Assembly: GCA_964568715.1 (NCBI GenBank)
Contig: CAZMQU010000004.1
Span: forward strand, 11,089-75,088
Source: an uncultured Halanaerobiales bacterium
Lineage (GTDB): Bacteria; Bacillota; Halanaerobiia; B1SED10-174
DNA length: 64,000 nucleotides
Direction of reading: 5' to 3'
The translations under genes were made by a program, and so were the position numbers. The notes beneath the pieces are model-generated. The model made no database searches and was not told the DNA's origin. It saw only the letters and a program-made list of their open reading frames with translations. This document shows, in pieces, positions 11,597 to 34,873 of this stretch (position 1 is its first letter; each line of letters opens with the position of its first letter).

Positions 11597-12050
11597 TTGG
11601 TTCCCTTAAATTTGACCATGAATTTGTTTACAAGGAAATGTGAATTCCTTCATACTGGAAATATTCAACACGGGGAGGCGATTATCCCTCTAGCCTGAGA
11701 AAAACGCCGGATAAAGAAAAGATTTTCCTCCAGCCGGGACAATGAATTTGATAGAAATTTTTTAAAAATCACCCCGGGGGTGATTACTTTGGGTAACGGA
11801 TTTAGTATGATTGTTTTATATACGGAGAGTCTGTCAAATGTTGTATTTCCCAGAATTTCTTACGGCGACCTGTTAGCTCCGGCCTGGGAATGCTTATATA
11901 TTAACTAGATCTATTTCTCAAGACTATCGGCAATGACTGCTCCTTGTTCGTTTCATAGATCCAGACCCTTAATTAGTTTTGGTTTCCCAATTTTCAACAG
12001 GGGGTGACGGGTAAAAAGGTTGATATGGGTATTAAAAAGGAGGGTGCAAA

Positions 12051-13192
12051 TTGAAAAGAAAACTTTTGATCTGGGCTGTGCTGTTGTTGCTGGTACTGGT
12101 GGTGGGCTGCGATGGGAAAAAGGGTGGTTTGAGTGTCAAAGTATATGAAGGGGAAACCAGTGAATTTTTAAAGGTCAACTTGAAACTTACAATCGGCGGG
12201 AAAACAGCTTCTACTTCTTCGGGCCAATATACTTTTACACAAGTGCCTGTCGGTACCCATACCCTAACAGTCGAAGCTGCAGGCTATTTCGAAAAAAATC
12301 AAGAGGTTACCATCGAAGCGGGCAAGGTTGTGGACTGTGAGGTACGGTTGGTAAAAAACTATATCGCAGAGGTCAAGGTACCCGGAGGTATAAACCCCAT
12401 TGGCCTAAAAGATAACTATCTGATTACTCCAATTGATTCTTTCTTTATAGCCAAGTATGAAATAAGCTGGCAGGCCTGGAAAGAAGTCTATGATTGGGCC
12501 ACGGATGATGCGCGGCTGGGTAGAAAATATTATTTTGAAAATGAAGGCAAAATGGGTGAAGTCTTTTCGGGGGGGGTACCCCCATTACCACGGATGAAAA
12601 CCACCCGGTCACACATATTTCCTGGTATGATGCCATCGTTTGGTGCAATGCCCTGACCGAGTACTATAATCATTTCCAGGGTGAAAACTTGGAATGCGTT
12701 TATAAATCAAGTGGCGGATCGGTTCACCGTAGTTCCCAGGCAGCTTTTGTGCCACAGCTGGAGACGGTGAATCCCGACCCTGATGCCAAGGGTTTTCGTT
12801 TACCGTCTTCTAATGAGTGGGAACGGGCCGCCCGCTACAGGGACGGATCGAACTGGCTTGATGGCAACCATGCCAGCGGTGATCCTACCAAGCCATGCTG
12901 GACGGAGAGCGGCCAGGGCCTTTCGACCCTTTATGGCGACTATGCATGGCATGAGGGTAACAGCGAAGGTCATACTCACCCGGTTGGCAAAAAGAAAGAA
13001 AATGACTTGGGGATTTACGATATGAGCGGTAACGTTTCGGAATGGTGCTTTGATAAAGATGGTGACGATCGGGTTACCCATGGCGGGAGCGGCAAACTGG
13101 GCAACAGATGGCTGCAGATTGGTTTGCAAATTTCATGCGCTCCGGAATACACTTACAACGATTTGGGTTTGCGTCCCGTCAGGACCAAGTAG
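12051..13192 (+). pseudogene. FGE-sulfatase (SUMF1-like) domain lipoprotein, disrupted by a -1 frameshift in a G8 homopolymer (either phase-variable or a pseudogene)
   Basis: ORF 12051..12656 (frame 0) carries a signal peptide with a lipobox (VVGCDG) and a beta-sandwich domain. ORF 12689..13192 (frame 2) carries the FGE-domain motifs (GFRLPSSNEWERAARY, GIYDMSGNVSEWCF). Read in frame 2 from 12569, the sequence gives GGGTPITTDENHPVTHISWYDAIVWCNALTEYYN, which matches the paralogs. The junction is the G8 run at 12569-12576 followed by a C5 run. Confidence 0.7.
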
Positions 13193-13466: not shown

Positions 13467-14618
13467 ATGAGCAGAAAGATTTTGGTTGTCGGTATGGCTT
13501 TGTTGATGCTCGCCTTGGTGGGCTGCGGGGGGAAAAAGGGCGTCTTGGAGGGGACTATTGTTAAGGAGGGCACTTCCGATTTAATTACAGATGAAGTGCT
13601 TGTCGAAGTGGCCGGCGAATCGATGACGACAGAAGACGGGAAATACGCCTTTGCCGGTATTTCCGCAGGGGTACACGTCCTTGAAGCCGTAGCTGACGGG
13701 TACAAGCCTTACAGCAGGCAAGTTATCGTCGAAGCAGGCAAAACGACGATACACAAGGTGGAGTTGACAGAAATTTTACCCCCTCTGGCCATTGAGGAAG
13801 CGGAAGTTCCGGCCACCCTTGCATTTCCGATGGAAACGGATGATTCAAAGACAAATATGCAACCATTTGACGATTTTTATATGGCCAAATACCAGGTAAC
13901 CTACGAATTGTGGAAGAAGGTCTATGATTGGGCAACAGATGAAGCAAGGGGGACAGGAAAATATACCTTTGCCAACGAAGGATTGAAGGGCAACGACGGT
14001 GACGCCGAAAAGACCGATCAACATCCCGTAACGAGCATCAATTGGCGGGATGCCGTGGTTTGGTGCAATGCTTTAACCGAGTATTACAATGGGGCAAACG
14101 ATGCGAACTTGGCTTGTGTTTACGTCGATACCAACAATAGAGTTATTCGCAAATCCGAGACCGGCACCCTTGCACCCACCATACAAGTTGCTGAAGGAGC
14201 CAAGGGCTTTCGCCTACCCACCAGCGTGGAATGGGAATTCGCCGCCCGCTACCGGGGCGATGATCCGACCAATACGGTAGAGGGTTTCTCAGATCCCTAT
14301 TTCACCAAGGGGGATTCCGCCAGCGGCGCCACCGCTAACTGGCAAGACAAAGAGGTCACCAAGCTGGTTGCCTGGTTTACAGAAAACAGCGGCGACTCTA
14401 CCCATGAGGTGGGCGGCCTGGCTGCGAACGCTTTGGGCATTTATGATATGAGCGGGAATGTCCGGGAATTCTGTTATACAAGCCGAGGGGATGGAAGGGC
14501 CCTTCGTAACGGTGGCTTCCGGGATATTGCCACTTTTCTGCAAATAGGTTACGAGCGGGAGCTTCGGGAGGATACAGTTTCGGAAGTTATCGGATTTAGG
14601 GTTGTGAGGACCAAATAA
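13467..14618 (+). CDS. Lipoprotein with an N-terminal CarboxypepD_reg/Ig-like beta-sandwich and a C-terminal FGE-sulfatase (formylglycine-generating-enzyme-like, DUF323) domain
   Basis: The signal peptide and lipobox are LALVGCGG. FGE-family motifs are present: HPVTSINWRDAVVWCNALTEYYNG, GFRLPTSVEWEFAARYRG and GIYDMSGNVREFCYT. It lacks the paired catalytic cysteines of true FGE. Confidence 0.8.
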   Translation: MSRKILVVGMALLMLALVGCGGKKGVLEGTIVKEGTSDLITDEVLVEVAGESMTTEDGKYAFAGISAGVHVLEAVADGYKPYSRQVIVEAGKTTIHKVELTEILPPLAIEEAEVPATLAFPMETDDSKTNMQPFDDFYMAKYQVTYELWKKVYDWATDEARGTGKYTFANEGLKGNDGDAEKTDQHPVTSINWRDAVVWCNALTEYYNGANDANLACVYVDTNNRVIRKSETGTLAPTIQVAEGAKGFRLPTSVEWEFAARYRGDDPTNTVEGFSDPYFTKGDSASGATANWQDKEVTKLVAWFTENSGDSTHEVGGLAANALGIYDMSGNVREFCYTSRGDGRALRNGGFRDIATFLQIGYERELREDTVSEVIGFRVVRTK

Positions 14619-14715: not shown

Positions 14716-14955
14716 TCAGATGAAATTTTCGTCTTTTCCTTTGATCATTTTGATATAAACCATCAATTTCTTGCGGTAATTCACATTCAGTTGTTGATAT
14801 TTCCGTTTTTTGTGATTTATGGACAAAAAAAGGGCATCAGCAGCTTCCTTGGCCTTGTAACCTCGGCAATAATGATCGAAGACACTTCGCTCTGCCGGTG
14901 TCAAGTTTTTAATATTGTCAGCAAATCTTTGCAAGAGTTGCTTGGCTTGCTGCAA
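14716..14955 (-). CDS. Stand-alone LuxR/FixJ-type HTH fragment (79 aa), probably a remnant of a duplicated membrane LuxR regulator
   Basis: LTPAERSVFDHYCRGYKAKEAADALFLSIN...YRKKLMVYIKMIKGK aligns to the C-terminal HTH of the 18697..20316 protein (LSPAEENVFNLYLKGHSAKEAAEILYLSINTIKTHNKRIYRKLNVSSRKELMILIKMM). It has a 4-aa gap in the recognition helix. No sensor domain lies upstream. Confidence 0.5.
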   Translation of the reverse strand: MQQAKQLLQRFADNIKNLTPAERSVFDHYCRGYKAKEAADALFLSINHKKRKYQQLNVNYRKKLMVYIKMIKGKDENFI

Positions 14956-15382
14956 GAAGTCTATAAGCGGGTAACAGACGAAGCAAAGGGAGATGGGTAG
15001 TATATATTTGGTAAATAAATTTGAAGTTTATTTATGGAAAACGTTTGCTTAGGCGATGGTATCGCTTTGGCAGCCGGTTATTTTTAAAGAGATGGCCGAT
15101 TATTTTTTACAACCGGCTTATACTTAATTTAGGGGATCATTTGCCAATTCCTCTTGCAAAATCACCCCTAATTCACCCCTTTGCAGAAAAATATCCAACA
15201 AAATCACCCTAAGGATGATTACAAATAAGAAAAAAAATTGTATATTAGGTCTGAAGAAACTTATTTTGCAGAAGCTGTTTTAGGACAACCGGAATTATTG
15301 TCTGTCCAAAAGCAGAGCATTTTGTCAACCTGACACCGGGTCAAGCAATTTACCGCCTGAAATTCTGTAAGGAGGTGTAGCA

Positions 15383-16252
15383 ATGCGGCAATATTTATCG
15401 CTTTTGCTATTGATTATTTGCCTGAACATATTTTCCGGTTGTAAAGCAAACGGGGTTTCCACAGTGAATTATAATAAGATCGAGGATAGGGCCCGGGTAG
15501 AAAGAGAAATTCTCCCGAAAATGCAAGTCAGCCGGGTAGAAGGGGCCAATATTAATAAGGGTGGGGGAAGCTATGCACAAAAAATACCGACAATAGCCGG
15601 CGGTTATAATGCTTATAAAGATGCCCGGGATGCTTTTGAGCGTTATGCTTTGGATATGAGTAATTTTTGTGGGACTGTTGCCTTAAATATAAGCTTGGTA
15701 AGTGCCTTTGAAGGAGAGATTTATTTTTATCTTTTGCCTTTGGATTTCATCGGCTTGTCAATAGATAGCTTGGGGTATTATGATGAATCAATGGAAGCAA
15801 CTTGGATCAAGATGGCTTTTGCCGGTGATGGTAAGATGATTATCGGCTCCGATGGTAGCTATCTTCTAACCGGTACTTCCGGTGAGGGTAAGTCGATGAT
15901 TTTGCAAATTGAATACCGACCTGAAGAAGATGAATTACGCTTGGAAGTGCAAGAAGACGGTAGACTGGCTTTACTTTTTGAATATATAAAAAACAAAGAA
16001 GGTTATGCCGCCCAGTATTACTTTAAGGCAGCCACCGGCTATTATGAAGATGCTCCAAAAGCAATGTGTGTCTATAGGACAATTTTCAACGGCTTGAACG
16101 GTTCCTGTGCCCGCTATGACGGTGTCGAATCAAAGCCGCAATCCTTGCTTGGCTCTGCTCCTTTAGGTGACGAATTTTTTGCCGGAGCAACCCACTGGTT
16201 TACTCTCACCAATGGAAGGTTTACAGGACTGCTAAATGGTAAGGCTTTTTAG
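15383..16252 (+). CDS. Hypothetical lipoprotein
   Basis: The signal peptide and lipobox are LNIFSGCKANG. It has a good RBS (AGGAGGTG, then 8 nt, then ATG). I recognised no conserved domain. Confidence 0.6.
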   Translation: MRQYLSLLLLIICLNIFSGCKANGVSTVNYNKIEDRARVEREILPKMQVSRVEGANINKGGGSYAQKIPTIAGGYNAYKDARDAFERYALDMSNFCGTVALNISLVSAFEGEIYFYLLPLDFIGLSIDSLGYYDESMEATWIKMAFAGDGKMIIGSDGSYLLTGTSGEGKSMILQIEYRPEEDELRLEVQEDGRLALLFEYIKNKEGYAAQYYFKAATGYYEDAPKAMCVYRTIFNGLNGSCARYDGVESKPQSLLGSAPLGDEFFAGATHWFTLTNGRFTGLLNGKAF

Positions 16253-16565: not shown

Positions 16566-18332
16566 ATGAAAAAACAAATCAAACAATTGAGGTGGAAAAT
16601 AATGTTGAAAAGGGCATTTCTTTTTGTTTTAATTGGCGTTCTGGTTCTTACTACTGTTTTTATCGGATGTGAAGGTAAGAAAACAGGTCAATTAAAGGGT
16701 AAAATCTACGATGAAGCAACAGAAGAATTGGTTAAAGAAAGTATCACCATTACCCTAGGAGACAAGAACTTGCTTGTAGAGGATGGGGATTATATATTTA
16801 CCGACATAACCCCCGGTGAAAAGAGCCTGAAAGTTTTGGCTCCCGGTTATGAAGAATATAGTGCGACGGTGGTCATTGAAGCCGGTAAGGTAATGACTCA
16901 CGATGCTTATTTGATAAAAGAAGAATTGCCGATCGTAAAGGGTGCGCTGCAGGGTAAAATTATTGATAAAGAGCTCGGTATTTTAGTTACCGGAGCTGTT
17001 ACCGTAAAACTTGACGGCCAAGCTTCTACCTTCACCGATGGAGAATATATTTTTACCGATTTGGAGCCTGGTGAAAAAGAATTGCAAGTCAGCATACCCG
17101 CTTACAAAGTGTATTCTGCTAGAGTCGAAATTGAATCGGGAGAGACTACTGAGCATGATGTTTTACTGGAGCAAGCATTAAGAACTATTAAAGGAAAGAT
17201 TTTTGACAAAGCAAACGGAAATCTAATTACTCAAAGAGCAGACATTACGATAGAGTATGCCGATGGTGATTATGAAAGATCATTGACCGTTTATGATGGT
17301 GAATATTGTTTCGATGATTTGCCCTATTTTAAAGCAAATGCATACTGGCACATATCTTGCGCTACGGAAGACTATAAAACCCATTATACATTGCTAATCT
17401 TTTCCGGCAGTAATACCACCATTATTGAGAAAGATTTTTACCTTGATACAATAACCTTATCGCCGCTAAACCTTAATTTGATACCTATAACGGTAATTCC
17501 AGCGGAAGGGTTTCCCAAAGGAAACGATGATCTTTCCACGGGCCAGGTACCTGAACCCGATCTGTATTACCTGGGTAAATATCAAATTACTTATGGTTTG
17601 TGGCAGACTGTCTACAACTGGGCTACTGAGGAAGAACGCGGCGAAAATCGATACTATTTTCAAAATCCTGGGACAGGAACAGGTATTTTTCATCCGGTTA
17701 CGGGTATCAGTTGGCGGGATGCCATTGTCTGGTGCAATGCCTTAAGCGATTACTATCGGGAATCAAACGAGGATTACGAAAGCTATCCGGTTTATTTAGA
17801 TTCGGATAACTATGAACCTATTCGGGATTCCAGGGACAGTAACGGCGAAATCTGCGATAATGCCATATGCGCTTGGGAGGATGTTTACGGGTTTCGTCTA
17901 CCCACTTCAGAAGAATTTGAGGCAGCAGCCCGCTACATTGGGCCCGATAAGCCCACCGAAGGTGCAATTGGGGAAGAAGCTATCTTTAAAAACGATATTT
18001 ATTGGACGCCTCATAACTTTGCCAGCGGTGCTTTGGATGAAATAGATAACGAAGAGGCAACTACTGCCGTAGCCTGGTATTCACAAAACAGTGGTGATCA
18101 AATTCATCCTGTTGGCGATTTGTTGCCCAATGCTTTGGGGTTATACGACATGAGCGGCAATGTTTGGGAATATTGTTTTGCTTCAGGTGATGTTGGCAGA
18201 TGTGTTTTACGGGGTGGCCCTTTCAACGGGATGCGGGTAGATGTCGGTTATTACATTAGTGCTCCTTTTGATGATGGCTCCAATAATTTTGGCTTCCGTT
18301 TGGCCAGAAGCAGATATGAATTTAACTATTAA
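16566..18332 (+). CDS. Large lipoprotein with three tandem beta-sandwich repeats and a C-terminal FGE-sulfatase domain
   Basis: Lipobox VFIGCEG. There are three internal repeats of about 85 aa (GKIYDEATEEL...GDYIFTDITPGEKSLKVLAPGYEEYSATVVIEAGKVMTHDAYL; GKIIDKELGIL...GEYIFTDLEPGEKELQVSIPAYKVYSARVEIESGETTEHDVLL; GKIFDKANGNL...). FGE motifs are HPVTGISWRDAIVWCNALSDYY, GFRLPTSEEFEAAARY and GLYDMSGNVWEYCF. Confidence 0.8.
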   Translation: MKKQIKQLRWKIMLKRAFLFVLIGVLVLTTVFIGCEGKKTGQLKGKIYDEATEELVKESITITLGDKNLLVEDGDYIFTDITPGEKSLKVLAPGYEEYSATVVIEAGKVMTHDAYLIKEELPIVKGALQGKIIDKELGILVTGAVTVKLDGQASTFTDGEYIFTDLEPGEKELQVSIPAYKVYSARVEIESGETTEHDVLLEQALRTIKGKIFDKANGNLITQRADITIEYADGDYERSLTVYDGEYCFDDLPYFKANAYWHISCATEDYKTHYTLLIFSGSNTTIIEKDFYLDTITLSPLNLNLIPITVIPAEGFPKGNDDLSTGQVPEPDLYYLGKYQITYGLWQTVYNWATEEERGENRYYFQNPGTGTGIFHPVTGISWRDAIVWCNALSDYYRESNEDYESYPVYLDSDNYEPIRDSRDSNGEICDNAICAWEDVYGFRLPTSEEFEAAARYIGPDKPTEGAIGEEAIFKNDIYWTPHNFASGALDEIDNEEATTAVAWYSQNSGDQIHPVGDLLPNALGLYDMSGNVWEYCFASGDVGRCVLRGGPFNGMRVDVGYYISAPFDDGSNNFGFRLARSRYEFNY

Positions 18333-18696: not shown

Positions 18697-20316
18697 TTAT
18701 AAGGATTGTTCGTGTTTTTCCTGCATCATTTTTATTAGAATCATCAACTCTTTGCGGGAGCTAACATTTAGTTTTCGGTAGATCCTTTTATTGTGAGTTT
18801 TAATTGTATTGATGGACAGATAAAGGATTTCGGCGGCTTCCTTGGCGCTATGCCCTTTTAAATAAAGATTGAAGACATTTTCTTCCGCAGGTGACAGGGT
18901 TTTGATATTGTTGATAAAGTTTTGGAGAAGAGTAGAGTCGCCGGCCAGAATTTCTCTTATAGTAAGTCTTTGCTTTGTCTTTTCCCGGCTTGCCCAAAAG
19001 TTAACCAGTTCATCGATTTCTTGAATGTTTGTCTTGGTCTGTTCTATTGACGGGTCGCCCTTCATCCTTTCAAAGGTATCGACTAAAGGCTTAATTAGGC
19101 GACGGCTTAAAAATACTCCGGCGCTGATGCTGAGGGCAAATAGAAATAAAAGCAAAAGTAATATCGGTTTGTTTTGTTGCATAATCAGAGGGCCAAGATT
19201 ATTTTGCGGAATCAGCAAAGCCAAGGCCCATTGGGTATCGGCAAAGGCCGCATCTTTTGGATAAAGATTGATGGTTTTTTGGATGCCGTAGTATGTAGAA
19301 TGGTCTGCAAGGGCATATTGCAGCAAGCCCTTTTTGCTTTTTTGAAAGGTTAAAAAGCCTCCCTTTTCAGAGGGAACGGTAGTATAGTTAGCTGCAAAAA
19401 GGGCCCCTGAAACATCAAGATTAGCCTCTGCCAAAGGAGCAAGCATGGCGAAGGTGTGGGTATAGTAGCTACCGGCAGGAGTATGTTGCAATTTAAAGAG
19501 CATTTCACTTATCTCGAAGCCGCAAACCCCCATGATAATGCCGTCAGGGCTGATAAGGGGGATGGTGAGGAGTATGGCTTTTTCACAAGCTTCGCCTAAA
19601 GAAGTAGCCGGATTCCAATAGTAAAGTCGTGACAAGGGAAGCTTGCTGTGTTTGGCTTCATTGAGCGTAAAAGAAAAAAAGTCATCGGGGGCAATTGAAA
19701 ATTCCATTTGCCATTGGGGGAGCAAATCCAATCCTTTTTTGCGGGCTATTGTGACCGGGCCACGCAGATAGCGGATAGTAGGGAAAACAACATTGACAAT
19801 ATTTGGCTCCATATTTTTCAAAAAAATGCCGGCTCGGGATCGGTTGGCTGTGGGCAAAGCAGGGTTGATGGTAGCATCCAATACGAGAAATGCGCCGCTA
19901 CATTTGCTTTTTCCCAGAGCCGCTATCAATGAATCCAGTGAATTGGTCAAGAGAAGTTCGAGTTGTTCGGGATAATTTTGTAAATCGGCAGGGGCAATAT
20001 CCAGCCGGCGGAGGTCTGCTATCAGATTTTGAGCTAAAGTTTGAGCTAAGATGACTCCTTCAACGGCTAAAACATTAAATTCGCGGGAGATTCGCGGTGC
20101 TGTATGCTCCAATTCATTATGTAAAAAGACGCAAAATTCTCGCTGACCGCCGGAAAAGACGCCGGTAGCATATAAAATTATAAGTAGTGCAAACATAATT
20201 GCCAGCAAGAATAATAAAAAGAAAGTCAAAGAATGCCTTCGCAGGCTAGGATCTTTTTCCCAGAGGGACCGGATATTCGGTATTATATTTTTCAACACTA
20301 ACCTAAATTTGGTCAC
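18697..20316 (-). CDS. Membrane-tethered one-component transcriptional regulator: TM, an extracytoplasmic sensor domain of about 320 aa, a second TM, and a C-terminal LuxR-type HTH
   Basis: TM1 is LTFFLLFLLAIMFALLIILYATGVF and TM2 is ILLLLLFLFALSISAGVFL. The C-terminal HTH is LSPAEENVFNLYLKGHSAKEAAEILYLSINTIKTHNKRI. It has no kinase or receiver domains. Confidence 0.75.
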   Translation of the reverse strand: MTKFRLVLKNIIPNIRSLWEKDPSLRRHSLTFFLLFLLAIMFALLIILYATGVFSGGQREFCVFLHNELEHTAPRISREFNVLAVEGVILAQTLAQNLIADLRRLDIAPADLQNYPEQLELLLTNSLDSLIAALGKSKCSGAFLVLDATINPALPTANRSRAGIFLKNMEPNIVNVVFPTIRYLRGPVTIARKKGLDLLPQWQMEFSIAPDDFFSFTLNEAKHSKLPLSRLYYWNPATSLGEACEKAILLTIPLISPDGIIMGVCGFEISEMLFKLQHTPAGSYYTHTFAMLAPLAEANLDVSGALFAANYTTVPSEKGGFLTFQKSKKGLLQYALADHSTYYGIQKTINLYPKDAAFADTQWALALLIPQNNLGPLIMQQNKPILLLLLFLFALSISAGVFLSRRLIKPLVDTFERMKGDPSIEQTKTNIQEIDELVNFWASREKTKQRLTIREILAGDSTLLQNFINNIKTLSPAEENVFNLYLKGHSAKEAAEILYLSINTIKTHNKRIYRKLNVSSRKELMILIKMMQEKHEQSL

Positions 20317-20346
20317 TCCCGACCACCCGGCCTTAAGTTAATAATG

Positions 20347-21723
20347 TTAAAAATTCAGAAATTTTTGGTAGATATCAGCGTTTAAATCATTAATGCTTTG
20401 ATCGGTTGCCAGGTATTCATCTTTACCTGCAAGCATGGCTTCTTTTATCTTGGTTTCATATTCTTTGCTTAAGGCATCGAAATTTTCATAATTGGGCGGT
20501 ACCAAAAAAGTGTAGTCCTTGTACATTTCGATGACGGTTCGGAGGAGCTTTTGCAAATTTTCATTTTCAATGTAATCGATTTCCTGTTGCATATTGACTT
20601 CAAAAGCTTTCTTTGTCACCGGTAAATAGCCGGTGGAAGAAACGAAGCGCATATTCTGTTCAGGTTGGGTAAACCATTTTAAAAACAGTGCGGCGGCGTA
20701 TTCTTTTTCCGGGGTCGCCCTACCGATGCACATACCGCCTCCCCGTTGGAGGGCAATCTTTTGGCCTGCCTCGAAGGTCGGGTAGGGCAGAACGGTAAAG
20801 GAAACTTTTTCAGTTGTATTGTCCGGATATGTTACTTGATCACCGTAAAACAATATGCCTGCTGTGGAGCCGGTTGAGCAAAGAATTTCGCCTGTTCGCA
20901 CCAAATCGGAGGAGTAGCCGGTAGTAATCGCATAACCGCCGGTAATAGCCGGCAAAACTGTGCAATCCCAAATATGACGGAAAATGTTCCCATGTGTTTC
21001 CAGTCCTTTGGCTGTAACAAAGTCGCCGCCTAACTGGGCAGTGCCAACCTGAGCAATATTGAACCAGGAATCCGCCGTAAAGAAGGTAGTACCGGCTTTA
21101 TAATGGGATGGTGATTGAGAAGTAGCCCATTGGTGATAGTCTGTAGCGACTTTGCCCAAGCCCTCAAAGGTAGCTAGATCTTCCAAACCGGCGCCCGTTG
21201 CAGCGGAAAAACGATCAAACAGAGTCTGGTTGACGAAAAGAACCTCGGTGGATTTGGCGACAGGAAAGACATAGAGATTGCCATCTGTAAGGCATCCTTC
21301 GGCAATAAATTGGGGCAAGTAGGCCTCCAGCTCCTTGTCTGTAAAAAAATCGTCCAGCGGAACGATTAAATCTTCCTCGACCAGGGTTAGGGCTGTCTTG
21401 GGGTAAGTTGTGACAATATTGGGCATCAACGGGGCACCGGGATCGCCGGCAGCGATTAGGAACAGCTTTTCTTGGATGCTGGCTGAGCCGGATATGGATG
21501 TAACGTTGACCATGACCCCTTTTTTGCGCCCTAAAGAGTTGTTGAATTCGTCAACCAATGCATCCATTGCACTCTGCATTTGGCCACCGTAATTGTGCCA
21601 CATAGTAATAGTCACGGGATTTTTGGGATCGAGCTTAACGCCATTGCAGCTTGTAAGTAAAAAGGCTAAACTTAAAAAAATAACCGCCAAGATAAGTATT
21701 TTTCTAATGGATAACACCCCCAT
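20347..21723 (-). CDS. ABC transporter substrate-binding lipoprotein (family 1, carbohydrate-type SBP)
   Basis: Lipobox LLTSCNG. It is about 458 aa and the overall pattern is SBP_bac_1-like. It lies directly upstream of, and co-oriented with, the membrane LuxR regulator, with a 30-nt gap. Confidence 0.75.
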   Translation of the reverse strand: MGVLSIRKILILAVIFLSLAFLLTSCNGVKLDPKNPVTITMWHNYGGQMQSAMDALVDEFNNSLGRKKGVMVNVTSISGSASIQEKLFLIAAGDPGAPLMPNIVTTYPKTALTLVEEDLIVPLDDFFTDKELEAYLPQFIAEGCLTDGNLYVFPVAKSTEVLFVNQTLFDRFSAATGAGLEDLATFEGLGKVATDYHQWATSQSPSHYKAGTTFFTADSWFNIAQVGTAQLGGDFVTAKGLETHGNIFRHIWDCTVLPAITGGYAITTGYSSDLVRTGEILCSTGSTAGILFYGDQVTYPDNTTEKVSFTVLPYPTFEAGQKIALQRGGGMCIGRATPEKEYAAALFLKWFTQPEQNMRFVSSTGYLPVTKKAFEVNMQQEIDYIENENLQKLLRTVIEMYKDYTFLVPPNYENFDALSKEYETKIKEAMLAGKDEYLATDQSINDLNADIYQKFLNF

Positions 21724-21961
21724 AAATTGGTGAATATGTTTAATAACTATAAGTTCAGGCTTAGAGTTACTTTTAAAATATATGTTTTTGAAAAATTGAA
21801 GGATTACAAAGGTATTTGTCTAGCAAAATTTTTGGGGCTGACTATTTTTAATAATTCCATATTTCGATAATGAAATCCTGCCTTTTGTAGATATATTAAT
21901 TAGTATTTGCCGATCTGAAGTCGATTGAAGTTGATTGTTAAAAAGAAAAAACCTTGCAAGA

Positions 21962-21998
21962 GAGAAAAGATTCTATTGCAAGGTTTCTGTGTTATTTG
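21962..21998 (-). terminator. Rho-independent terminator on the minus strand, downstream of the peroxiredoxin gene
   Basis: The hairpin ACCTTGCAA-(16-nt loop)-TTGCAAGGT is followed, on the minus strand, by TTTTTTCTTTTT. Confidence 0.45.
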
Positions 21999-22138
21999 CT
22001 GAACCATATCAAAATCCATCAATATGTTTTTTTAAGGTTCGAAGCAAAGTGTCCCTTATCTACAAATAGGATTTAGAAACATACTTGGGATACATTGAAT
22101 CAAAAAGTATTTATCGGGTAAGGGGTTAAGCAAACTTC

Positions 22139-22750
22139 TTAGTCATCGAAAGCTTCGTTGACTTTCCATTCTTTCCACACATTACCTACCAGGTTAGGAT
22201 TGGGCTTAAGAGTATTTTTACCCGGTTTCCAGCCGGAAGGTGTAGCTTCGGTACCTTTCGATTTGCGGACCAGTTGGAAGGCTTGAATTTGTCTGATGGC
22301 TTCGGAAATATTTCTACCGACAGGCGGGGTCAAAACTTCAAAAGCCTGGATGATTCCTTCGGGATCGATAATGAACCTGCCCCGTGTTTCTGTACCGCTG
22401 TCTTCATCATAGATACCATACATTTTTCCTATGCTGCCATCTTGGTCGGAAAGCATGGGAAAGGGTATATCTTTGCCGATCATCTTGGAAAGTTCATGCT
22501 CGTTCCAAATTTTGTGAACATAAATGCTGTCTACGCTGACAGTTAAAACTTCCACGCCTAAATCTTGAAATTCAGAATATTTTTCAGCAACTGCTGAGAC
22601 TTCAGTAGCTCAGACAAAGGTGAAGTCCCCCGGATAAAAACATAGTAATACCCATTTGCCTAGATATTCCGACAGCTCGATGTTCATAAATTTCCCTTTG
22701 TGAAAGGCGGGTGCGGTAAAATCGGGTGCTTTGGAGCCAACTTTAACCAT
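22139..22750 (-). CDS. prxU: Selenocysteine-containing peroxiredoxin (PrxU-like, 1-Sec type). The in-frame UGA (plus coordinates 22610-22612) replaces the peroxidatic Cys.
   Basis: ORFs 22610..22858 and 22139..22555 are in the same frame and separated only by TGA. The joined translation reads [38 protein letters not shown]. The canonical AhpC/Prx motif is FYPLDFTFVCPTE. The resolving-Cys region reads [12 protein letters not shown], so that Cys is absent. The likely start is the ATG at 22750 ([14 protein letters not shown]), which has AAAGGAGGAAAT 7 nt upstream. Confidence 0.8.
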
Positions 22751-23229
22751 CGTTCTTATTTCCTCCTTTGGGCTTTGATTATTCACCGTTACAGCCTTTG
22801 AAACTTCTTTTTTCTTTATTGCGGGTCTTTGACAGCCCGGCCCAAACTCTTCGGCCAATATAATTCACCCCTTTTAAAAATATTTTTACACCGGAATAGA
22901 TTGGTTTTCTTTATAATGTTTACTTATTTATAATTTCCATCAATAGATATAAAATCCTCTTTATTTGTTTTTTCAATGACTGAATTGATATTATACAATC
23001 GATAACATAAAATGTTTGTTCAATTACCGATAAAATAGCCGGTAACCGTGGCTGCTAGGATGGAAAATAAATGGTTTAATAAGAGAAGCAGGAATGTGTA
23101 ACATACCCTTGTAAAAGATTGCCACTATGGGTAAGATATAGTTGAGAAGTTATACGATATAAAAATTATATAAAATATGAATATTAAGGGGGAATTACCA
23201 TAAAGAGGACTAAGAAGCAATTAGCTGTA

Positions 23230-24852
23230 GTGATCGTGGCAATAATAATGACCCTTGTATTCCCTTTGGGTGTTTTCGGTAAAAAAGCTAACCCTAGCGT
23301 TGCACTTGTATTGGGGGGAGGTTCAGCCCGTGGTTTGAGCCATATTGGTTTTATCAAAGCCATGGAAGAACAGGGGATTCCAATTGATCTATTGGTTGGG
23401 ACAAGCATGGGCAGTATTATTGCCGGTATTTATGCTGCCGGTTACTCGACTGACAATATGATACATATCTTCTCAACTTTGGATATGGCCTCCCTTCTCG
23501 ATATTCCAATGCCCCCCCTGGGCGGTGTTCTTGATACTGCCGGTTTACAATTGTATCTGGACAAGATGCTGCGGGGAATGTGCTTTGATGAGTTGTCCAT
23601 CCCTTTTTATTCAGTAGTGGTTAACCTGGGTACCGGTAAAGAGGAGGCATTGAATGAGGGAAAGGTTAGTACTGCCATTCAAGCCAGTATGTCTATTCCC
23701 GGTGTTTTTATGCCGGTTGAAATCGATGGACAACACTATGTAGACGGTGGTTTGAAAAATCAGGTTGCTGCTAATGTGGCCGCTGACAAGGGTGCCGATG
23801 TCATAGTTGCCGTATGTTTGGAGCACGATTATCAAGAGCCGAATTTTAAAGATATAATAAATAACTTACGCATGTCCTTGACCGCCATGATGGATGGCTA
23901 TGTTGATATACATACCGCCATGGCCGATGTGCTAGTCTTACCTGAAGTGGATTTTGGTTCATCTATGGACTATTACCGGGTGCCGTATTTTGTTACTCAA
24001 GGTTACAAGGCCGGCAATGAGTATGCTACGGAGATAAAAGAGGCCATCTTGGCCCAAAATCCTTCCTATAAATTCATTCCTTATAAGCAACCCGGTTGCA
24101 GTACCGGTGAATTGAATCAATTGTTGCGAGAAGCGGAGCTTGCTGCAGCCACACTGCCCAAACGTTTCACTTTGAAAACTCTTTTGACTTACGATAGAGA
24201 TTACAATTTTACAAAAATGGGCTTGAAGTTTACCCATGGCCCCCTAAATTTGTTTGGTGTCGGTTATCGTTATGGGTTCGATTCGCAGGATGGTGGGCAT
24301 GAATTGTTTTTGGATTGGGGGACCGAAAAGACTGGAGCGGCCGATCTTTATCTCCGATTAAACCCTAATAGAAGTAAGCCTTCTTTTGGGTTTTCTCTCC
24401 GAAGCCCTGAATATAATAACCTTGCTTTAGAAGCAGCGTATGTATCTCAAGGGGAAAAGGCTTGGCGATTATCCGTTACCAATAATTCACTTTTGAATCT
24501 CCCTCGGGTAGTTGCAGGGTTATCATTGCAAGTTCACAGGCTTCGTACCGATGAAACCAGTGTACCGTATGCAGAAAAAATTATTTTGAATGCTATGCCA
24601 AGGTTAAGAATATATCCTTGGGAAGACAAGCGTTTTGCCTTGGGAGCTGCCTTAATAAGACCGTACCTTTTAACGGGTGCTTCTATAGGCACAAAGATCA
24701 GCAAATTTGAACCTATTGTATCCATCAAAACCGGCATGGGCTTGGATTTCCAATTGATGGGCCTTTATCCGGGTACGTTTTTTGCCGGTATTCAATTTGA
24801 CGGTACCGGTAAGTTAAAAGGGAAGTTCGAATTAAAGATGGGTGATCTGTAG
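23230..24852 (+). CDS. Patatin-like phospholipase (PNPLA) with a C-terminal beta-strand-rich domain of about 250 aa
   Basis: Patatin motifs are present: the oxyanion motif LVLGGGSARG, the GxSxG motif GTSMGS, and DGG (YVDGGL). The C-terminal half shows alternating hydrophobic residues and is G/Y-rich, which looks beta-barrel-like. The start is uncertain. A signal-like sequence, KRTKKQLAVVIVAIIMTLVFPLGVFG, is in frame just upstream of the annotated GTG. Confidence 0.8.
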   Translation: MIVAIIMTLVFPLGVFGKKANPSVALVLGGGSARGLSHIGFIKAMEEQGIPIDLLVGTSMGSIIAGIYAAGYSTDNMIHIFSTLDMASLLDIPMPPLGGVLDTAGLQLYLDKMLRGMCFDELSIPFYSVVVNLGTGKEEALNEGKVSTAIQASMSIPGVFMPVEIDGQHYVDGGLKNQVAANVAADKGADVIVAVCLEHDYQEPNFKDIINNLRMSLTAMMDGYVDIHTAMADVLVLPEVDFGSSMDYYRVPYFVTQGYKAGNEYATEIKEAILAQNPSYKFIPYKQPGCSTGELNQLLREAELAAATLPKRFTLKTLLTYDRDYNFTKMGLKFTHGPLNLFGVGYRYGFDSQDGGHELFLDWGTEKTGAADLYLRLNPNRSKPSFGFSLRSPEYNNLALEAAYVSQGEKAWRLSVTNNSLLNLPRVVAGLSLQVHRLRTDETSVPYAEKIILNAMPRLRIYPWEDKRFALGAALIRPYLLTGASIGTKISKFEPIVSIKTGMGLDFQLMGLYPGTFFAGIQFDGTGKLKGKFELKMGDL

Positions 24853-29933: not shown

Positions 29934-31376
29934 ATGGGTGGTCAAAATTGTTCTTTGAAAAATAAATACAGGGTAAAAGGAATAGTAACCAAGGGTACCA
30001 AGAAAAATGATTTTTGGGGTACAAGGGCTAAAGGTTGGGGTTTTGAACACATTGATTTATGGCAATTGGAAAACATTAAAGTAGAGGTGTATCGTGCTGA
30101 AGATGTAAGTTTCCGGGGCGAGGAGCTGCAATTTAAGGAGGGAGCTGAAGCGGTTGCTTCCCTTCTTGTATCTGATCCCAATCCGGCCGGGAAAAATTAT
30201 TATGCTCCTTTTGAATTTCTTTTGAAGCGGGGCGATTATTATCTGATAATCCGGAAAGCCCCCGGCCTTTACGCAACGGTTTATAAGTCTTTCACCGTGG
30301 CGGATGGGGATACCGACGTGGGTCCCTTGCCCATGCGCAAAGAAAAGATCGAAGGGGAATTTGTCCGCAGCTTTTTCAGTTGCCGGCCCGATGGCTCAGT
30401 CGATTCGGCCAATAACAGGATTACCGTTAAGATACTTAATGCCAAAGTTGCTCCCGGGGGAGCCAATCGGAACACGGTATTGGTGGACGGTATGCCGCCG
30501 GGATTATTTGTGGAAGATTATATTGCCGATACAGAAGAAAATTCCATAAGTTTGGTTTTTGGGGGCCAAAGGCAGGATGAACTTATTGCCGGTCTTGTTT
30601 TGACAGTTACCATTATGGAAAAGGCTGTAATTAATGAGTTCTTTCCCGGTTGTTATTCCTATGATACTTCCGATAGGTTAAACGGTATACGATTGGTTCA
30701 AGAGGTATCTCCCCAAGATGTTGCCCTAGGTAAGGCATCGTATGCTCAAGCCTTTACATTTTTGCCCGGCGAAGCATATCCGGTGGATGACGCCAAGGAA
30801 TCTATCCGAAAGATTACCGGGGTTGATCCCAAGATTTTGGAGATTCTCTACCGGGAAAGTTTACAGGAGGATGGCAGTTGCAAGTATTGTTTGTTTTTGG
30901 TCAATACCAACGTTACGAGTACTTACATGCAAAGGCATTCCAAAGGAATAACTCCGCGAGGTTGGGAGTGGACGGGGCTTACCTGGGATGACATACCCGG
31001 GTCGGGAGGTAAAAACATAATCGTGCGGATAGGCCGGAGCGATTACGGCCATGGGCACGGCTCTACCAATGTGGAGCTCCACGAACTGGCCCACAATATC
31101 GATGCTTCCGTTTTCAAGGGAATTTCCAAGACAAAAGAATGGAATGACCTGCGGGAGGAAGAATCAACGCAACTTTTCCCCATGGACATTAACTATATGA
31201 CAGCCTATACCGAGGAATTTTTTGCTGAATCTTTTATGCTATACTATTTAAACGAAGAAAGCAAAAGATGGCTTCGCAAGAAAGGCCCCAAGACCTACGA
31301 AGCCATTGAAGTGGGCTTGCAAGAAAAATTAAAAAAATTCTACGGTAAGGATCCCAAGTATTCACATCTTTTTTAA
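29934..31376 (+). CDS. Protein with a C-terminal anthrax-lethal-factor-like (ATLF / Pro-Pro-endopeptidase-like, M34-type) zinc metallopeptidase domain
   Basis: The HExxH motif is VELHELAHNID. A downstream Glu is present (YTEEFFAESF). The preceding segment GWEWTGLTWDDIPGSGGKNIIVRIGRSDYGHGHGSTN is typical of ATLF-fold peptidases. There is no obvious N-terminal signal peptide. Confidence 0.55.
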   Translation: MGGQNCSLKNKYRVKGIVTKGTKKNDFWGTRAKGWGFEHIDLWQLENIKVEVYRAEDVSFRGEELQFKEGAEAVASLLVSDPNPAGKNYYAPFEFLLKRGDYYLIIRKAPGLYATVYKSFTVADGDTDVGPLPMRKEKIEGEFVRSFFSCRPDGSVDSANNRITVKILNAKVAPGGANRNTVLVDGMPPGLFVEDYIADTEENSISLVFGGQRQDELIAGLVLTVTIMEKAVINEFFPGCYSYDTSDRLNGIRLVQEVSPQDVALGKASYAQAFTFLPGEAYPVDDAKESIRKITGVDPKILEILYRESLQEDGSCKYCLFLVNTNVTSTYMQRHSKGITPRGWEWTGLTWDDIPGSGGKNIIVRIGRSDYGHGHGSTNVELHELAHNIDASVFKGISKTKEWNDLREEESTQLFPMDINYMTAYTEEFFAESFMLYYLNEESKRWLRKKGPKTYEAIEVGLQEKLKKFYGKDPKYSHLF

Positions 31377-33175: not shown

Positions 33176-34873
33176 ATGGGGAGTTGTCCATTGGTTCTTG
33201 GAAGGGTGAGTGCTGTGAAAAAGAAAAAAAATACAACTATCCTGATCATTTTGTCTTTACTTATGGTCGTTTTTAATTTGTTGGGTGTTTCAGTAATTTA
33301 TGCTTCCCCACCGTCTGTTGCTTTGATTTTAGGCGGTGGTTCAGCCCGGGGTTTAAGCCACATAGGGATGATCGAAGCCTTTGAAGAAAATGGTATACCC
33401 ATCGATATGTTGTTGGGGACAAGTAGCGGGAGTATTATAGGGGGGCTATATGGGGCCGGATTTTCCATTGAAAACATGATTGATATTTGCACTAATTTGG
33501 ATATGCACTCCTTAATTGAGATTCCCTTGCCGCCCCGTGGTGGTTTTATTGATTCCGGGCGACTTAGATATTACTTGGACATTATATTGGAGGGGATAAC
33601 CCTCGAACAACTATCAATTCCTTTTTATCCGGGTGTTGTTGATTTAGGTACGGGTCGGGATGTTGCCTTGGACCAAGGTAAGCTTAGTGCCGGTATCCTG
33701 GCCAGTATTGCCATTCCCGGAGTTTTTCCGCCTGTGGAAGTTGGCGGCAATTATTATGTCGATGGTGGTTTAAAAAATCTGGTCCCGGCAAATCTGGCCT
33801 CTGCTTTGGGAGCAGATGTCATTATCGGCGTATCTATGGGGCAAGAAAACCGAGTTTATAAGGATCCCGAACACAAAAGTATTTATAACAATTTGCGAAA
33901 AACCATCAATGCGGTTATGGTGGGGTATTCTGCGGTTAACACTGCTGAAGCTGATGTTCTTTTTGTGCCTGACATTGACTTGACACACATATACGACTAT
34001 GAAAATGTTCTTTATTTTGTTGAACGCGGCTATCAAGCAGGCATTGACCACATGGACGAAATTAGGGCGGCTATCCTGGCCAGAGATCCCGATTTTGTGT
34101 TTAAGCCCTACAAGCAAAAGGGAATCAGCAGTGTTGATTTGGCCAACCGGATTGAAAAGGCGAAGCGTGAAACAGAAAAATTTCATGGCCCACTTACGGT
34201 TAAGCCCCTTTTGGGTTTTGATGATAATTACTACTTTTCAAAAATTGGTGCAAAGGTTACGGCCGGTCCTTTAAAACGCTTTGGAGTTGGTTACCGCTAC
34301 GGTTTTAACGACGATGAAGGAGGCCATGAATTATTTGTCGATTGGTCCCATCCCAAAATTGCCAATCTCGATACTTATTTTAGAAAAAGTCCTAAAAGAG
34401 AGAAGATCACTTGGGGCCTGGACCTCAATATTCCTTTATACAAGAAATTTGCCTTGGATGCTGCTTTTGTTACGCAGGGTTCTAATGCTTGGCATGTGGC
34501 AGTTAGAAATGAAGCTTTCCTAAATTTTCCCCATTTTAACGGCGGTTTGGCCTTAACTCTTAAGGGCCTGCGTTCAGAAGGGGGTAATCTCTCCAACGAA
34601 GGGAAGCTTTCCTTGAGTTTAAAACCACAGATAAAGATTTTGCCTTGGGGCGAAAAGTGGCTTCCCCTAGGGCCTTTCCCCCTTAAACCCTACTTCTTGG
34701 CTGCTGCCGAAATGGGAACTCCTTTGAATGATTTCTCATTGCAGACGACTTTTAAAGTCGGCTTGGGAACCGACTTCAGAATCTTGGGCTTATTCCCGGG
34801 TGAACTGTCGTTGAACGGTTATATAACAAATGAAGGTCAATTTTTTGGCCAGATTGGATTAAGAAGAAAATAA
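33176..34873 (+). CDS. Patatin-like phospholipase, a paralog of 23230..24852, with a C-terminal beta-rich domain
   Basis: Motifs ALILGGGSARG, GTSSGS and YVDGGLKN. The N-terminal signal-like segment is KKKKNTTILIILSLLMVVFNLLGVSVIYAS. The C-terminus aligns with its paralog (KVGLGTDFRILGLFPG against KTGMGLDFQLMGLYPG). The start is uncertain, with a GTG at about 33212 as an alternative. Confidence 0.8.
   Translation: MGSCPLVLGRVSAVKKKKNTTILIILSLLMVVFNLLGVSVIYASPPSVALILGGGSARGLSHIGMIEAFEENGIPIDMLLGTSSGSIIGGLYGAGFSIENMIDICTNLDMHSLIEIPLPPRGGFIDSGRLRYYLDIILEGITLEQLSIPFYPGVVDLGTGRDVALDQGKLSAGILASIAIPGVFPPVEVGGNYYVDGGLKNLVPANLASALGADVIIGVSMGQENRVYKDPEHKSIYNNLRKTINAVMVGYSAVNTAEADVLFVPDIDLTHIYDYENVLYFVERGYQAGIDHMDEIRAAILARDPDFVFKPYKQKGISSVDLANRIEKAKRETEKFHGPLTVKPLLGFDDNYYFSKIGAKVTAGPLKRFGVGYRYGFNDDEGGHELFVDWSHPKIANLDTYFRKSPKREKITWGLDLNIPLYKKFALDAAFVTQGSNAWHVAVRNEAFLNFPHFNGGLALTLKGLRSEGGNLSNEGKLSLSLKPQIKILPWGEKWLPLGPFPLKPYFLAAAEMGTPLNDFSLQTTFKVGLGTDFRILGLFPGELSLNGYITNEGQFFGQIGLRRK

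Follow-up and report, generated by a model that had tools for sequence, protein, structure and literature searches.

Several bacterial receptors are known in which a solute-binding protein (SBP) signals to a double-Cache-like (dCache-like) domain of a membrane receptor, with LuxP-LuxQ, HptA-HptS, NspS-MbaA and ChvE-VirA as described examples (PMC8050422). In the CBP-ChiS system of Vibrio cholerae, the periplasmic SBP acts on the dCache-like domain of an inner-membrane protein that itself binds DNA (PMC8050422 Table 1). A 2021 review of SBP-stimulated receptors covers chemoreceptors, kinases, GGDEF/EAL enzymes and Ser/Thr kinases; it contains no class of transcription regulators, and neither "transcriptional regulator" nor "one-component" appears anywhere in its text (PMC8050422). 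Transmembrane transcription regulators as such are known and widespread (PMC10269533). Here we describe a gene pair on the minus strand of a 64,000-nt stretch of DNA from an uncultured Halanaerobiales bacterium (the whole stretch is called the window below), in which the gene of an orphan family-1 SBP lipoprotein is followed after 30 nt by the gene of a membrane protein with a C-terminal LuxR/GerE-type helix-turn-helix (HTH). It is probable, in our view, that the surface SBP and the tethered regulator form one kinase-less signalling device that carries an outside signal to promoters.

Both open reading frames (ORFs) were found where a first-pass annotation of the window had placed them, on the same strand and 30 nt apart (Table 1). 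The layout that it had read from the regulator, namely a transmembrane (TM) segment, an extracytoplasmic part of about 320 residues, a second TM segment and a LuxR HTH, agrees with hydropathy, charges, an AlphaFold2 (AF2) model and Pfam. The HTH (PF00196, residues 473-526, 46.4 bits against a cutoff of 23.5) is the only part of the protein that is recognized by Pfam or NCBIfam, and these scans revealed no HisKA, HATPase or receiver domain, which confirms the earlier statement that kinase and receiver domains are missing. The regulator does not belong to the two-component or hybrid-kinase proteins, the ChiS family included, nor to the quorum-sensing LuxR/TraR regulators, as its N-terminal 470 residues consist of TM segment, dCache, TM segment and linker and not of an autoinducer-binding domain. 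With a DNA-binding domain and at least one TM segment in one protein it falls under the definition of a transmembrane transcription regulator (PMC10269533), and with two TM segments only it stands outside the group of LuxR proteins with 10-12 TM segments that is found in Coriobacteriia.

Seven lysine or arginine residues are present before TM1 (residues 1-29) and five within the 17 residues after TM2, and it is because of this distribution that the sensor is placed outside the cell. Hydropathy and charge fit a topology with the N-terminus inside, the sensor outside and the HTH inside, and the AF2 model agrees with this. The model was obtained with 32 homologues, it has a mean predicted local distance difference test (pLDDT) score of 81, with about 90 in the extracytoplasmic part, and it displays a long stalk helix, two alpha/beta modules, and TM2 together with its cytoplasmic extension as one continuous helix. 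To the question whether the sensor is Cache-like, which the first-pass annotation had raised, the modelled fold answers with a dCache fold, that is, a long N-terminal stalk helix and two PAS-like alpha/beta modules between the two TM segments. As no Pfam or NCBIfam profile, such as PF02743, matches outside the HTH, the sensor is here called dCache-like by fold; a sequence search of the PDB with a family profile returned HTH domains only. A conserved linker, KTNIxEIDDL, lies between the TM2 helix and the HTH, and 60 of 65 regulators share an unchanged recognition helix, SINTIKTHN(K/R)RI.

The partner protein possesses a signal peptide with the lipobox LTSC (Cys26) and matches Pfam SBP_bac_8 (E 1.9e-29). 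Its AF2 model (pLDDT 92) has the complete two-lobe fold of MalE/UgpB-type SBPs, which Foldseek also retrieved with E values of 1e-22 to 1e-16, and the protein is a family-1 SBP both by its profile (SBP_bac_8 / SBP_bac_1) and by its two-lobe type-II periplasmic-binding fold. The closest solved structures are a Thermus dinucleotide-binding protein and then oligosaccharide and glycerophosphodiester binders, all of which are at most 20% identical. On the upstream side of the SBP gene there are the gene of a selenocysteine peroxiredoxin (prxU) and then a patatin gene, and the end of the regulator gene faces FGE-sulfatase lipoprotein genes. A promoter and terminator scan gave nothing above chance near the pair. 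A hairpin with a T-run nevertheless follows prxU upstream of the SBP gene and was missed by the scanner owing to its 16-nt loop, and because this terminator-like element separates the pair from prxU, the two genes look like a transcription unit of their own.

The evidence that carries the proposal is comparative. A scan of one genome per species gave 460 relatives of the regulator, and the locus comparisons use the best 80 of them, which span many Clostridia (Oscillospiraceae, Christensenellales, Lachnospiraceae, Syntrophomonadaceae, Peptococcaceae, Hydrogenispora) and also Sphaerochaeta; a large protein collection contained 497 homologues, the best 120 of which are mostly full length and about 40-55% identical. 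In 79 of the 80 loci, the gene directly upstream, in the same orientation, encodes an orthologue of the SBP (45-67% identity), and in the sole exception the sequence ends 76 nt upstream of the regulator. The pair is hence conserved in other genomes, with a median intergenic gap of about 20 nt, and nearly all SBPs of the family have a signal peptide that ends in a cysteine. When the ORFs of the 80 loci were clustered, only the SBP and the regulator families turned out to be universal. A dedicated SBP gene beside the gene of its receptor is what characterizes SBP-dependent receptors of the LuxPQ-like kind, and it is found here both in these 79 loci and with kinase outputs.

These kinase outputs came to light in a search of 1.84 billion representative proteins with the sensor domain only, which resulted in 660 clusters. 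Among the best 150 clusters, which were inspected, 122 carry the HTH of the family, the remainder are mostly fragments, and three proteins possess kinase outputs instead (a HisKA-HATPase-REC-Hpt hybrid, a His_kinase/HATPase protein and a HisKA/HATPase protein). An orthologous SBP is encoded immediately upstream of the kinase-output relatives in every recoverable context; for two of the three outputs (L082-L084) it covers the full length and is 40-41% identical to the SBP of the window, and for the third (L085) a partial match of 26% is left, which a contig end cuts. As the SBP accompanies the sensor on kinases as well, SBP and sensor appear to be a conserved unit with an interchangeable cytoplasmic output, and this output swapping is the strongest argument for a joint function.

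The distances among 63 complete SBP-regulator pairs point in the same direction. SBP and sensor distances correlate with r = 0.90 (Mantel p = 0.001), which is above the correlation of the sensor with its own cytoplasmic part (r = 0.81), and a partial correlation of 0.71 remains after controlling for the cytoplasmic part; this fits a co-evolution of SBP and sensor and is not proof of a contact. With a mean pairwise distance of 0.41 against 0.57, the SBP is more conserved than the sensor. This conservation and the many family-invariant residues of the SBP suggest that it binds one conserved ligand and not a variable nutrient.

Two further observations concern members of the family. The kinase-output relative in L083 (1352-15435) belongs to a dense array of genes for hybrid histidine kinases, and the binding protein that is encoded in front of them differs from kinase to kinase (SBP_bac_8, Peripla_BP_6 or DUF3798); this array resembles a bank of SBP-dependent sensors that feed Hpt proteins. 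In a protein of 703 residues (P0212) a fragment of SBP_bac_8 is joined to the full regulator, but a real fusion was rejected because the sensor would then be inside the cell, and the protein is probably an artefact of gene calling or of a frameshift.

The DNA site of the family surfaced only when upstream regions were compared across loci; a repeat search between 11 and 23 kb of the window had recovered the paralogous FGE repeats and a LuxR fragment, and not the operator. When the 350 nt in front of each SBP gene were compared, the half-site 8-mer AATCACCC or its complement proved to be present in 58 of 62 regions, and an inverted repeat with a AATCACCC arm was found at 33 loci, as compared to at most 3 in shuffled sequences. 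The operator is a 19-bp palindrome, AATCACCC-N3-GGGTGATT, which is usually accompanied on the SBP side by two further direct GGGTGATT half-sites, and the start-to-start spacing in this array is 11, about 23 and about 12 nt. Fused to the palindrome is a promoter of the sigma-70 type (TTACAA-16-TATAAT), which directs transcription away from the SBP gene, and the consensus on the strand opposite to the SBP gene is AATCACCC-N3-GGGTGA[TTACAa]-16 nt-[TATaaT]. When one mismatch was allowed in the -35 and two in the -10 element, such a promoter was detected on the flank away from the SBP gene in 40 of 60 sites and on the SBP-side flank in none of the 60, and the spacer has 16 nt in 35 of the 40 promoter-bearing sites. 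With the -10 element set at -12 to -7, the palindrome extends from about -51 to -33, has its centre near -42 and overlaps the -35 element, which is the geometry of a class-II activator site. In four loci with relocated target operons (L061, L063, L079 and L080) the palindrome has moved along and is found 55-65 nt upstream of them, and the kinase-output loci have no palindrome. A nearly invariant recognition helix is matched by an invariant half-site, and the HTH of the regulator would be expected to bind the palindrome.

An independent scan of metagenome contigs for exact matches to the operator plus the -35 element returned 49 sites, 23 of which have an SBP gene on the non-promoter side. Genes on the promoter side encode zinc-ribbon proteins (10), DUF6591 lipoproteins (6), MamF/MmsF-like membrane proteins (3), BTAD regulators (3), proteases (2) and FGE-sulfatase proteins (2), and several of the unmatched promoter-side proteins start with signal peptides or lipoboxes. 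From this gene content, in the scan and in the loci, the predicted regulon would comprise mostly exported or membrane proteins without assigned function.

Some promoter-side genes deserve separate mention. In the closest relatives (L001-L012 and L020), the operator-fused promoter drives a BTAD/SARP-type regulator, past which a multi-pass membrane protein and a CsgG-like lipoprotein are encoded, and the window has none of the three. In two Sphaerochaeta loci (L024 351-776 and L033 5052-5381), the promoter-side gene encodes a short soluble LuxR-type protein of 110-142 residues with a different recognition helix, STGTAKTHKNNIY, which may indicate a regulatory cascade in spirochaetes; because of this different helix, these proteins were rejected as equivalents of the 79-codon regulator remnant of the window that is described below. 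Four metagenome loci (L105, L106, L111 and L132) encode secreted proteins of more than 900 residues directly behind the operator-fused promoter, which match no other cluster of the regulon, although those of L105, L106 and L132 share an N-terminal region.

In the window itself, a search for the palindrome gave two matches where 0.20 were expected, and both are located in the FGE-sulfatase lipoprotein cluster next to the pair. The first-pass annotation had noticed a LuxR fragment and a shared upstream motif in this cluster, and both are real: the motif is the family operator, and the fragment is the remnant of a second regulator, with 51% identity to regulator residues 455-536 (tblastn 14728-14961, minus strand, E 7e-19) and 70% identity to the regulator gene over 117 nt as DNA repeat D2. 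Four residues are deleted within the recognition helix of the remnant (SIN----HKKR), which is about 200 nt away from the orphaned operator array at 15160-15220. Most simply, operator 2 would once have belonged to a second SBP-regulator module, the divergent promoter of which survived when the SBP and most of the regulator were lost. As an observation on the DNA, remnant and orphan array resemble the result of a deletion of about 2.8 kb that removed the SBP gene and most of the regulator gene.

Because of its canonical recognition helix, the intact regulator is the obvious candidate to bind both operators of the window. The FGE cluster can be predicted to be its local regulon, and the link between pair and cluster is probably regulatory and not merely positional; in the close relative L006, FGE genes are likewise found on the promoter side of the operator. 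Nearly all relatives have an operator and a divergent promoter of their own, which the window pair lacks: the 415 nt upstream of its SBP gene (21724-22138) contain no recognizable operator, and TTGTAATC is the only possible vestige. In the first FGE gene behind operator 1 (12051-13192), the frame changes near 12650 from frame 0 to frame 2 in comparison with the paralogues, which indicates either a pseudogene or an assembly error.

The proposal of the first-pass annotation, that an orphan SBP acts via the extracytoplasmic domain of the regulator, is thus supported by the comparative tests, namely by the pairing in 79 of 80 loci, the lack of an importer, the kinase swap and the correlation of r = 0.90. 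The SBP would serve as a lipid-anchored extracytoplasmic ligand receptor without a transporter and would report its ligand occupancy to the dCache domain, either by docking when it is loaded or by altering a standing complex. We infer both the contact between SBP and sensor and the assignment of ligand binding to one of them. The conformational change would then pass via TM2, which forms one long helix into the cytoplasm, and through the conserved linker to the HTH. A membrane-tethered dimer of the regulator would bind the 19-bp palindrome and act as a class-II-type activator of the genes that are read from the operator-fused promoter, with activation as the most likely sign of the regulation. 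In most genomes the targets would be a divergent operon of exported or membrane proteins, with genes for zinc-ribbon proteins, small membrane proteins, DUF6591 lipoproteins, proteases or a BTAD regulator, and the additional half-sites towards the SBP gene are suggestive of autoregulation. In the window, both operator-promoters would drive the adjacent FGE-sulfatase lipoprotein genes.

Several points weigh against this picture. The co-variation of distances is also expected from plain co-inheritance, and activation rather than repression is read from promoter geometry only. Searches with the sequence and the fold of the SBP gave mixed distant neighbours of at most 20% identity, from which no ligand class was assigned. 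Some loci encode other regulators nearby, of the BTAD or XRE type. The local system may be eroding, with a pair that has no operator of its own, one frameshifted target and a decayed second copy of the module. Finally, the distal Cache module holds the family-invariant residues R161, W202, E205, Y232, W234 and D258 and could bind a small ligand itself.

This last point bears on an alternative in which the dCache domain is the true ligand sensor and the SBP an accessory, be it a standing inhibitor or co-receptor, as CBP is on ChiS, or a second input. It is in keeping with such a role that dCache domains usually bind small ligands in their membrane-distal module (PMC8050422), where Arg, Trp, Tyr and Asp are kept invariant here, and that CBP stays on ChiS with and without chitin. 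We nevertheless think that this alternative is unlikely, as the SBP is more conserved than the sensor (0.41 vs 0.57) and has a complete two-lobe fold (pLDDT 92) and many family-invariant residues. SBP and sensor would still cooperate, so that one step would change and the overall picture would remain the same.

A signalling role of the module in this particular genome could also be denied altogether if it were a decaying relic without current function. The missing operator upstream of the intact pair, the reduction of a second regulator copy to 79 codons and the frameshift in the first FGE target would all be understandable on that basis; however, the ORFs of SBP and regulator are both intact and full length and have kept every residue that is invariant in the family, those of the recognition helix among them. 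A perfect palindrome with a good promoter persists at 11767-11811, and as the contig is derived from a metagenome, the frameshift could have arisen in the assembly. A relic is therefore quite improbable.

The third alternative is that the SBP serves an ABC (ATP-binding cassette) importer that is encoded elsewhere, and that the two genes are adjacent because the regulator controls SBP expression, without any signalling from SBP to sensor. Members of the family are labelled "multiple sugar transport system substrate-binding protein" in JGI annotations, the fold of the SBP is that of transport SBPs, and operator half-sites lie upstream of the SBP gene. Family-1 SBP genes of Firmicutes normally sit with their permeases, but no conserved permease or ATPase exists in the 80 loci: there is no recurrent permease family, an ABC ATPase is encoded in only 6 loci and is ABC-2-like, and Pfam-labelled contexts from an Intestinimonas butyriciproducens isolate and a 2.6-Mb contig contain no permease either. 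The window pair agrees with this, since the neighbours are the peroxiredoxin, patatin and FGE genes, as the first-pass annotation had maintained for the lack of an adjacent permease or ATPase, and the arrangement of a CUT1-type importer operon, with permease and ATPase genes beside the SBP gene, is absent. The ORF scan of the 64 kb detected only an ECF (energy-coupling factor) module and an ABC-2 exporter, neither of which is of a type that uses a family-1 SBP. The first-pass annotation had conceded that an importer just outside the window would speak against its proposal, but this does not apply because the window reaches 18 kb past the pair on one side and 42 kb past it on the other. Moreover, the SBP remains with the sensor on kinases, where the LuxR operator is absent, and it has diverged more closely in step with the sensor than with the DNA-binding part, so we regard a mere transport role as very improbable.

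A further alternative is that the palindrome is not the site of the regulator, but is bound by another factor or forms an RNA hairpin in the leader. In its favour, the palindrome could fold into a hairpin of 8 bp with a loop of 3 nt, in some loci just 42 nt separate it from the SBP start codon, so that it may be transcribed there, and BTAD or XRE regulators are encoded in some loci. We find this alternative hardly credible, because the palindrome co-occurs with the LuxR-type regulator and is absent from the kinase-output loci, is as invariant as the recognition helix, keeps a constant position to a -35/-10 pair that is present on one of its flanks only, has no Rfam match, and resembles in its 19-bp two-fold symmetry and extra half-sites the sites that are typical of NarL/GerE-type dimers, and because the other regulators occur in a minority of the loci only. 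The RNA reading was dropped when an Rfam scan of 11.0-23.5 kb gave one sub-threshold chance match.

Table 1. Features of the SBP-regulator pair, its predicted regulon and the remnant of a second module (positions in the window)
Feature	Position	Strand	Description
SBP gene	20347..21723	-	458 aa, ATG; orphan family-1 solute-binding lipoprotein; from ORF and translation
Regulator gene	18697..20316	-	539 aa, GTG; TM1, dCache-like sensor, TM2, linker, LuxR/GerE HTH
TM1	20143..20238	-	Residues ~27-58; Kyte-Doolittle window score 3.15; AF2 helix 25-51
Extracytoplasmic double-Cache-like sensor	19177..20154	-	Residues 55-380 (~325 aa)
TM2	19093..19188	-	Residues ~377-408; hydropathy 2.82; AF2 continuous helix 371-420 running into the cytoplasm
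LuxR/GerE-type HTH	18739..18900	-	Residues 473-526; recognition helix SINTIKTHNKRI
Intrinsic-terminator-like element	21941..21985	-	Arms AACCTTGCAA / TTGCAAGGTT, then T-run TTTTTCTTTTT; read from sequence
Operator 1	11767..11785	.	Perfect AATCACCCCGGGGGTGATT
Promoter 1	11784..11811	+	-35 TTACTT, 16-nt spacer, -10 TATGAT; built like the family consensus; reads into FGE-lipoprotein genes
Operator 2	15202..15220	.	AATCACCCTAAGGATGATT, 1 mismatch
Promoter 2	15219..15246	+	-35 TTACAA, 16-nt spacer, -10 TATATT; reads into 15383..16252 and 16566..18332
Two extra direct half-sites	15160..15178	-	GGGTGATT and GGGTGAAT; placed on the expected SBP side and oriented as ahead of an SBP gene
Predicted target 1	12051..13192	+	FGE-sulfatase lipoprotein gene, frameshifted; Pfam on both halves, paralogue repeat D1
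Predicted target 1b	13467..14618	+	FGE-sulfatase lipoprotein, 383 aa; Pfam E 5e-27
Predicted target 2	15383..16252	+	289-aa protein, first gene after promoter 2; no family match
Predicted target 2b	16566..18332	+	FGE-sulfatase lipoprotein, 588 aa, convergent with the regulator gene; Pfam FGE-sulfatase and CarboxypepD_reg
Second-regulator remnant	14716..14955	-	79-codon ORF; match to regulator residues 455-536

The surroundings of the pair contain some further features. The PrxU-type peroxiredoxin gene (22139-22858, minus strand) is split into ORFs of 82 and 138 residues by an in-frame TGA, and public annotation shows it as two separate genes. The TGA is at the peroxidatic position (F-V-TGA-A-T-E, compared to FVCPTE of peroxiredoxins) and almost certainly encodes selenocysteine; the NCBIfam PrxU match of 251 bits stayed under the cutoff of 270 only since half of the protein was scanned. 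A second likely selenoprotein of the window is a formate-dehydrogenase-like molybdopterin subunit (44894-47569, plus strand), the gene of which is interrupted by an in-frame TGA (45938-45940) in the motif C-A-R-V-TGA-H-A-P. Two patatin-like phospholipase genes (23230-24852 and 33176-34873, plus strand) and a gene for a protein with an anthrax-lethal-factor-like (ATLF) domain (29934-31376, plus strand) are found within 12 kb of the pair.

Beyond this genome, we lean towards the view that the pair is the founding example of a widespread kinase-less, SBP-gated class of regulators that is composed of a lipoprotein SBP, a dCache sensor, a LuxR HTH and a 19-bp operator on the -35 element. It would be present in hundreds of anaerobic Firmicutes and some Spirochaetes, human-gut genera included, would respond to one conserved extracellular molecule by controlling genes of exported proteins, zinc-ribbon proteins and lipoproteins, and in the course of evolution would have had its receptor cassette plugged into either a kinase or a DNA-binding output. 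The first-pass annotation had called SBP-dependent one-component regulators poorly characterized, and this holds in so far as no description of the SBP-dCache-LuxR family was found in the literature searched, the coverage of which is incomplete, so that the absence is not proof; the concept as such has a precedent in CBP-ChiS. An SBP-gated, kinase-less dCache-LuxR regulator is no new principle, yet it stands for a large unstudied family that is experimentally tractable. As its parts are well defined, from the soluble SBP, the dCache domain and the short linker to the canonical HTH, the perfect palindrome and the promoter of fixed geometry, the system lends itself to the questions of how tethered regulators pass a signal across the membrane to their DNA-binding domain and how they find their targets. 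It also offers a handle on unstudied exported proteins of gut and digester Clostridia, such as the zinc-ribbon proteins and the DUF6591 and FGE-sulfatase lipoproteins, it could serve synthetic biology as a compact sensor module, and the window provides a concrete and testable regulon prediction.

Each part of the arrangement has counterparts in known systems. A dimeric LuxR-type HTH at a two-fold site of about 20 bp that overlaps the -35 element and is centred near -42 recalls LuxR at the lux box, the position of which is -42.5; in contrast to LuxR, the window regulator is membrane-tethered and has no autoinducer-binding domain, and its operator is unrelated in sequence to the lux box. ToxR, TcpP, CadC and BcrR likewise combine a DNA-binding domain and a TM segment in one polypeptide that acts from the membrane, and as predicted here their targets are near the regulator gene. 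They are, however, single-pass proteins with an N-terminal OmpR- or XRE-type domain, whereas the window regulator is a two-pass protein with a C-terminal LuxR HTH, and the partners of these classic regulators are ToxS, TcpH or LysP and not an SBP. A membrane-embedded one-component sensor with a C-terminal LuxR-type HTH is found in DadR, HcdR and CadR of Eggerthella lenta (PMC9734109), but these have 10-12 N-terminal TM segments, no large extracytoplasmic domain and no SBP, whereas the window regulator has two TM segments around a dCache domain.

On the side of signal reception, LuxPQ, HptAS, ChvE-VirA, NspS-MbaA, the clostridial XylFII-LytS and CuaD-CuaSR share with the window pair an orphan or signalling SBP beside a double PAS/Cache-like receptor, and NspS is also an SBP_bac_8 protein (PMC8050422). 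The sensor family described here has kinase-output members as well, which brings it close to the SBP-dependent kinases, but the output in the window is direct DNA binding and neither phosphotransfer nor turnover of cyclic di-GMP. CBP-ChiS would seem to be the nearest precedent, with a different architecture: in both cases promoter DNA is bound from the membrane by the receptor itself without a partner response regulator, whereas ChiS is a hybrid kinase with HisKA, HATPase and receiver domains, none of which are present in the window regulator, and its DNA binding is controlled by phosphorylation. The DNA-binding domain of ChiS is a cryptic non-LuxR HTH (PMC8092284) and that of the window regulator a canonical LuxR/GerE HTH, and CBP is an SBP_bac_5 protein that is listed with transporter and signalling genes (PMC8050422 Table 1), in contrast to the SBP_bac_8 lipoprotein without a transporter. 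ChiS is the only studied SBP-controlled membrane-bound DNA binder and yet still a kinase; the family described here, which dispenses with the phosphorelay, would, if our reading is true, connect an extracellular binding protein with a promoter by the shortest route known.

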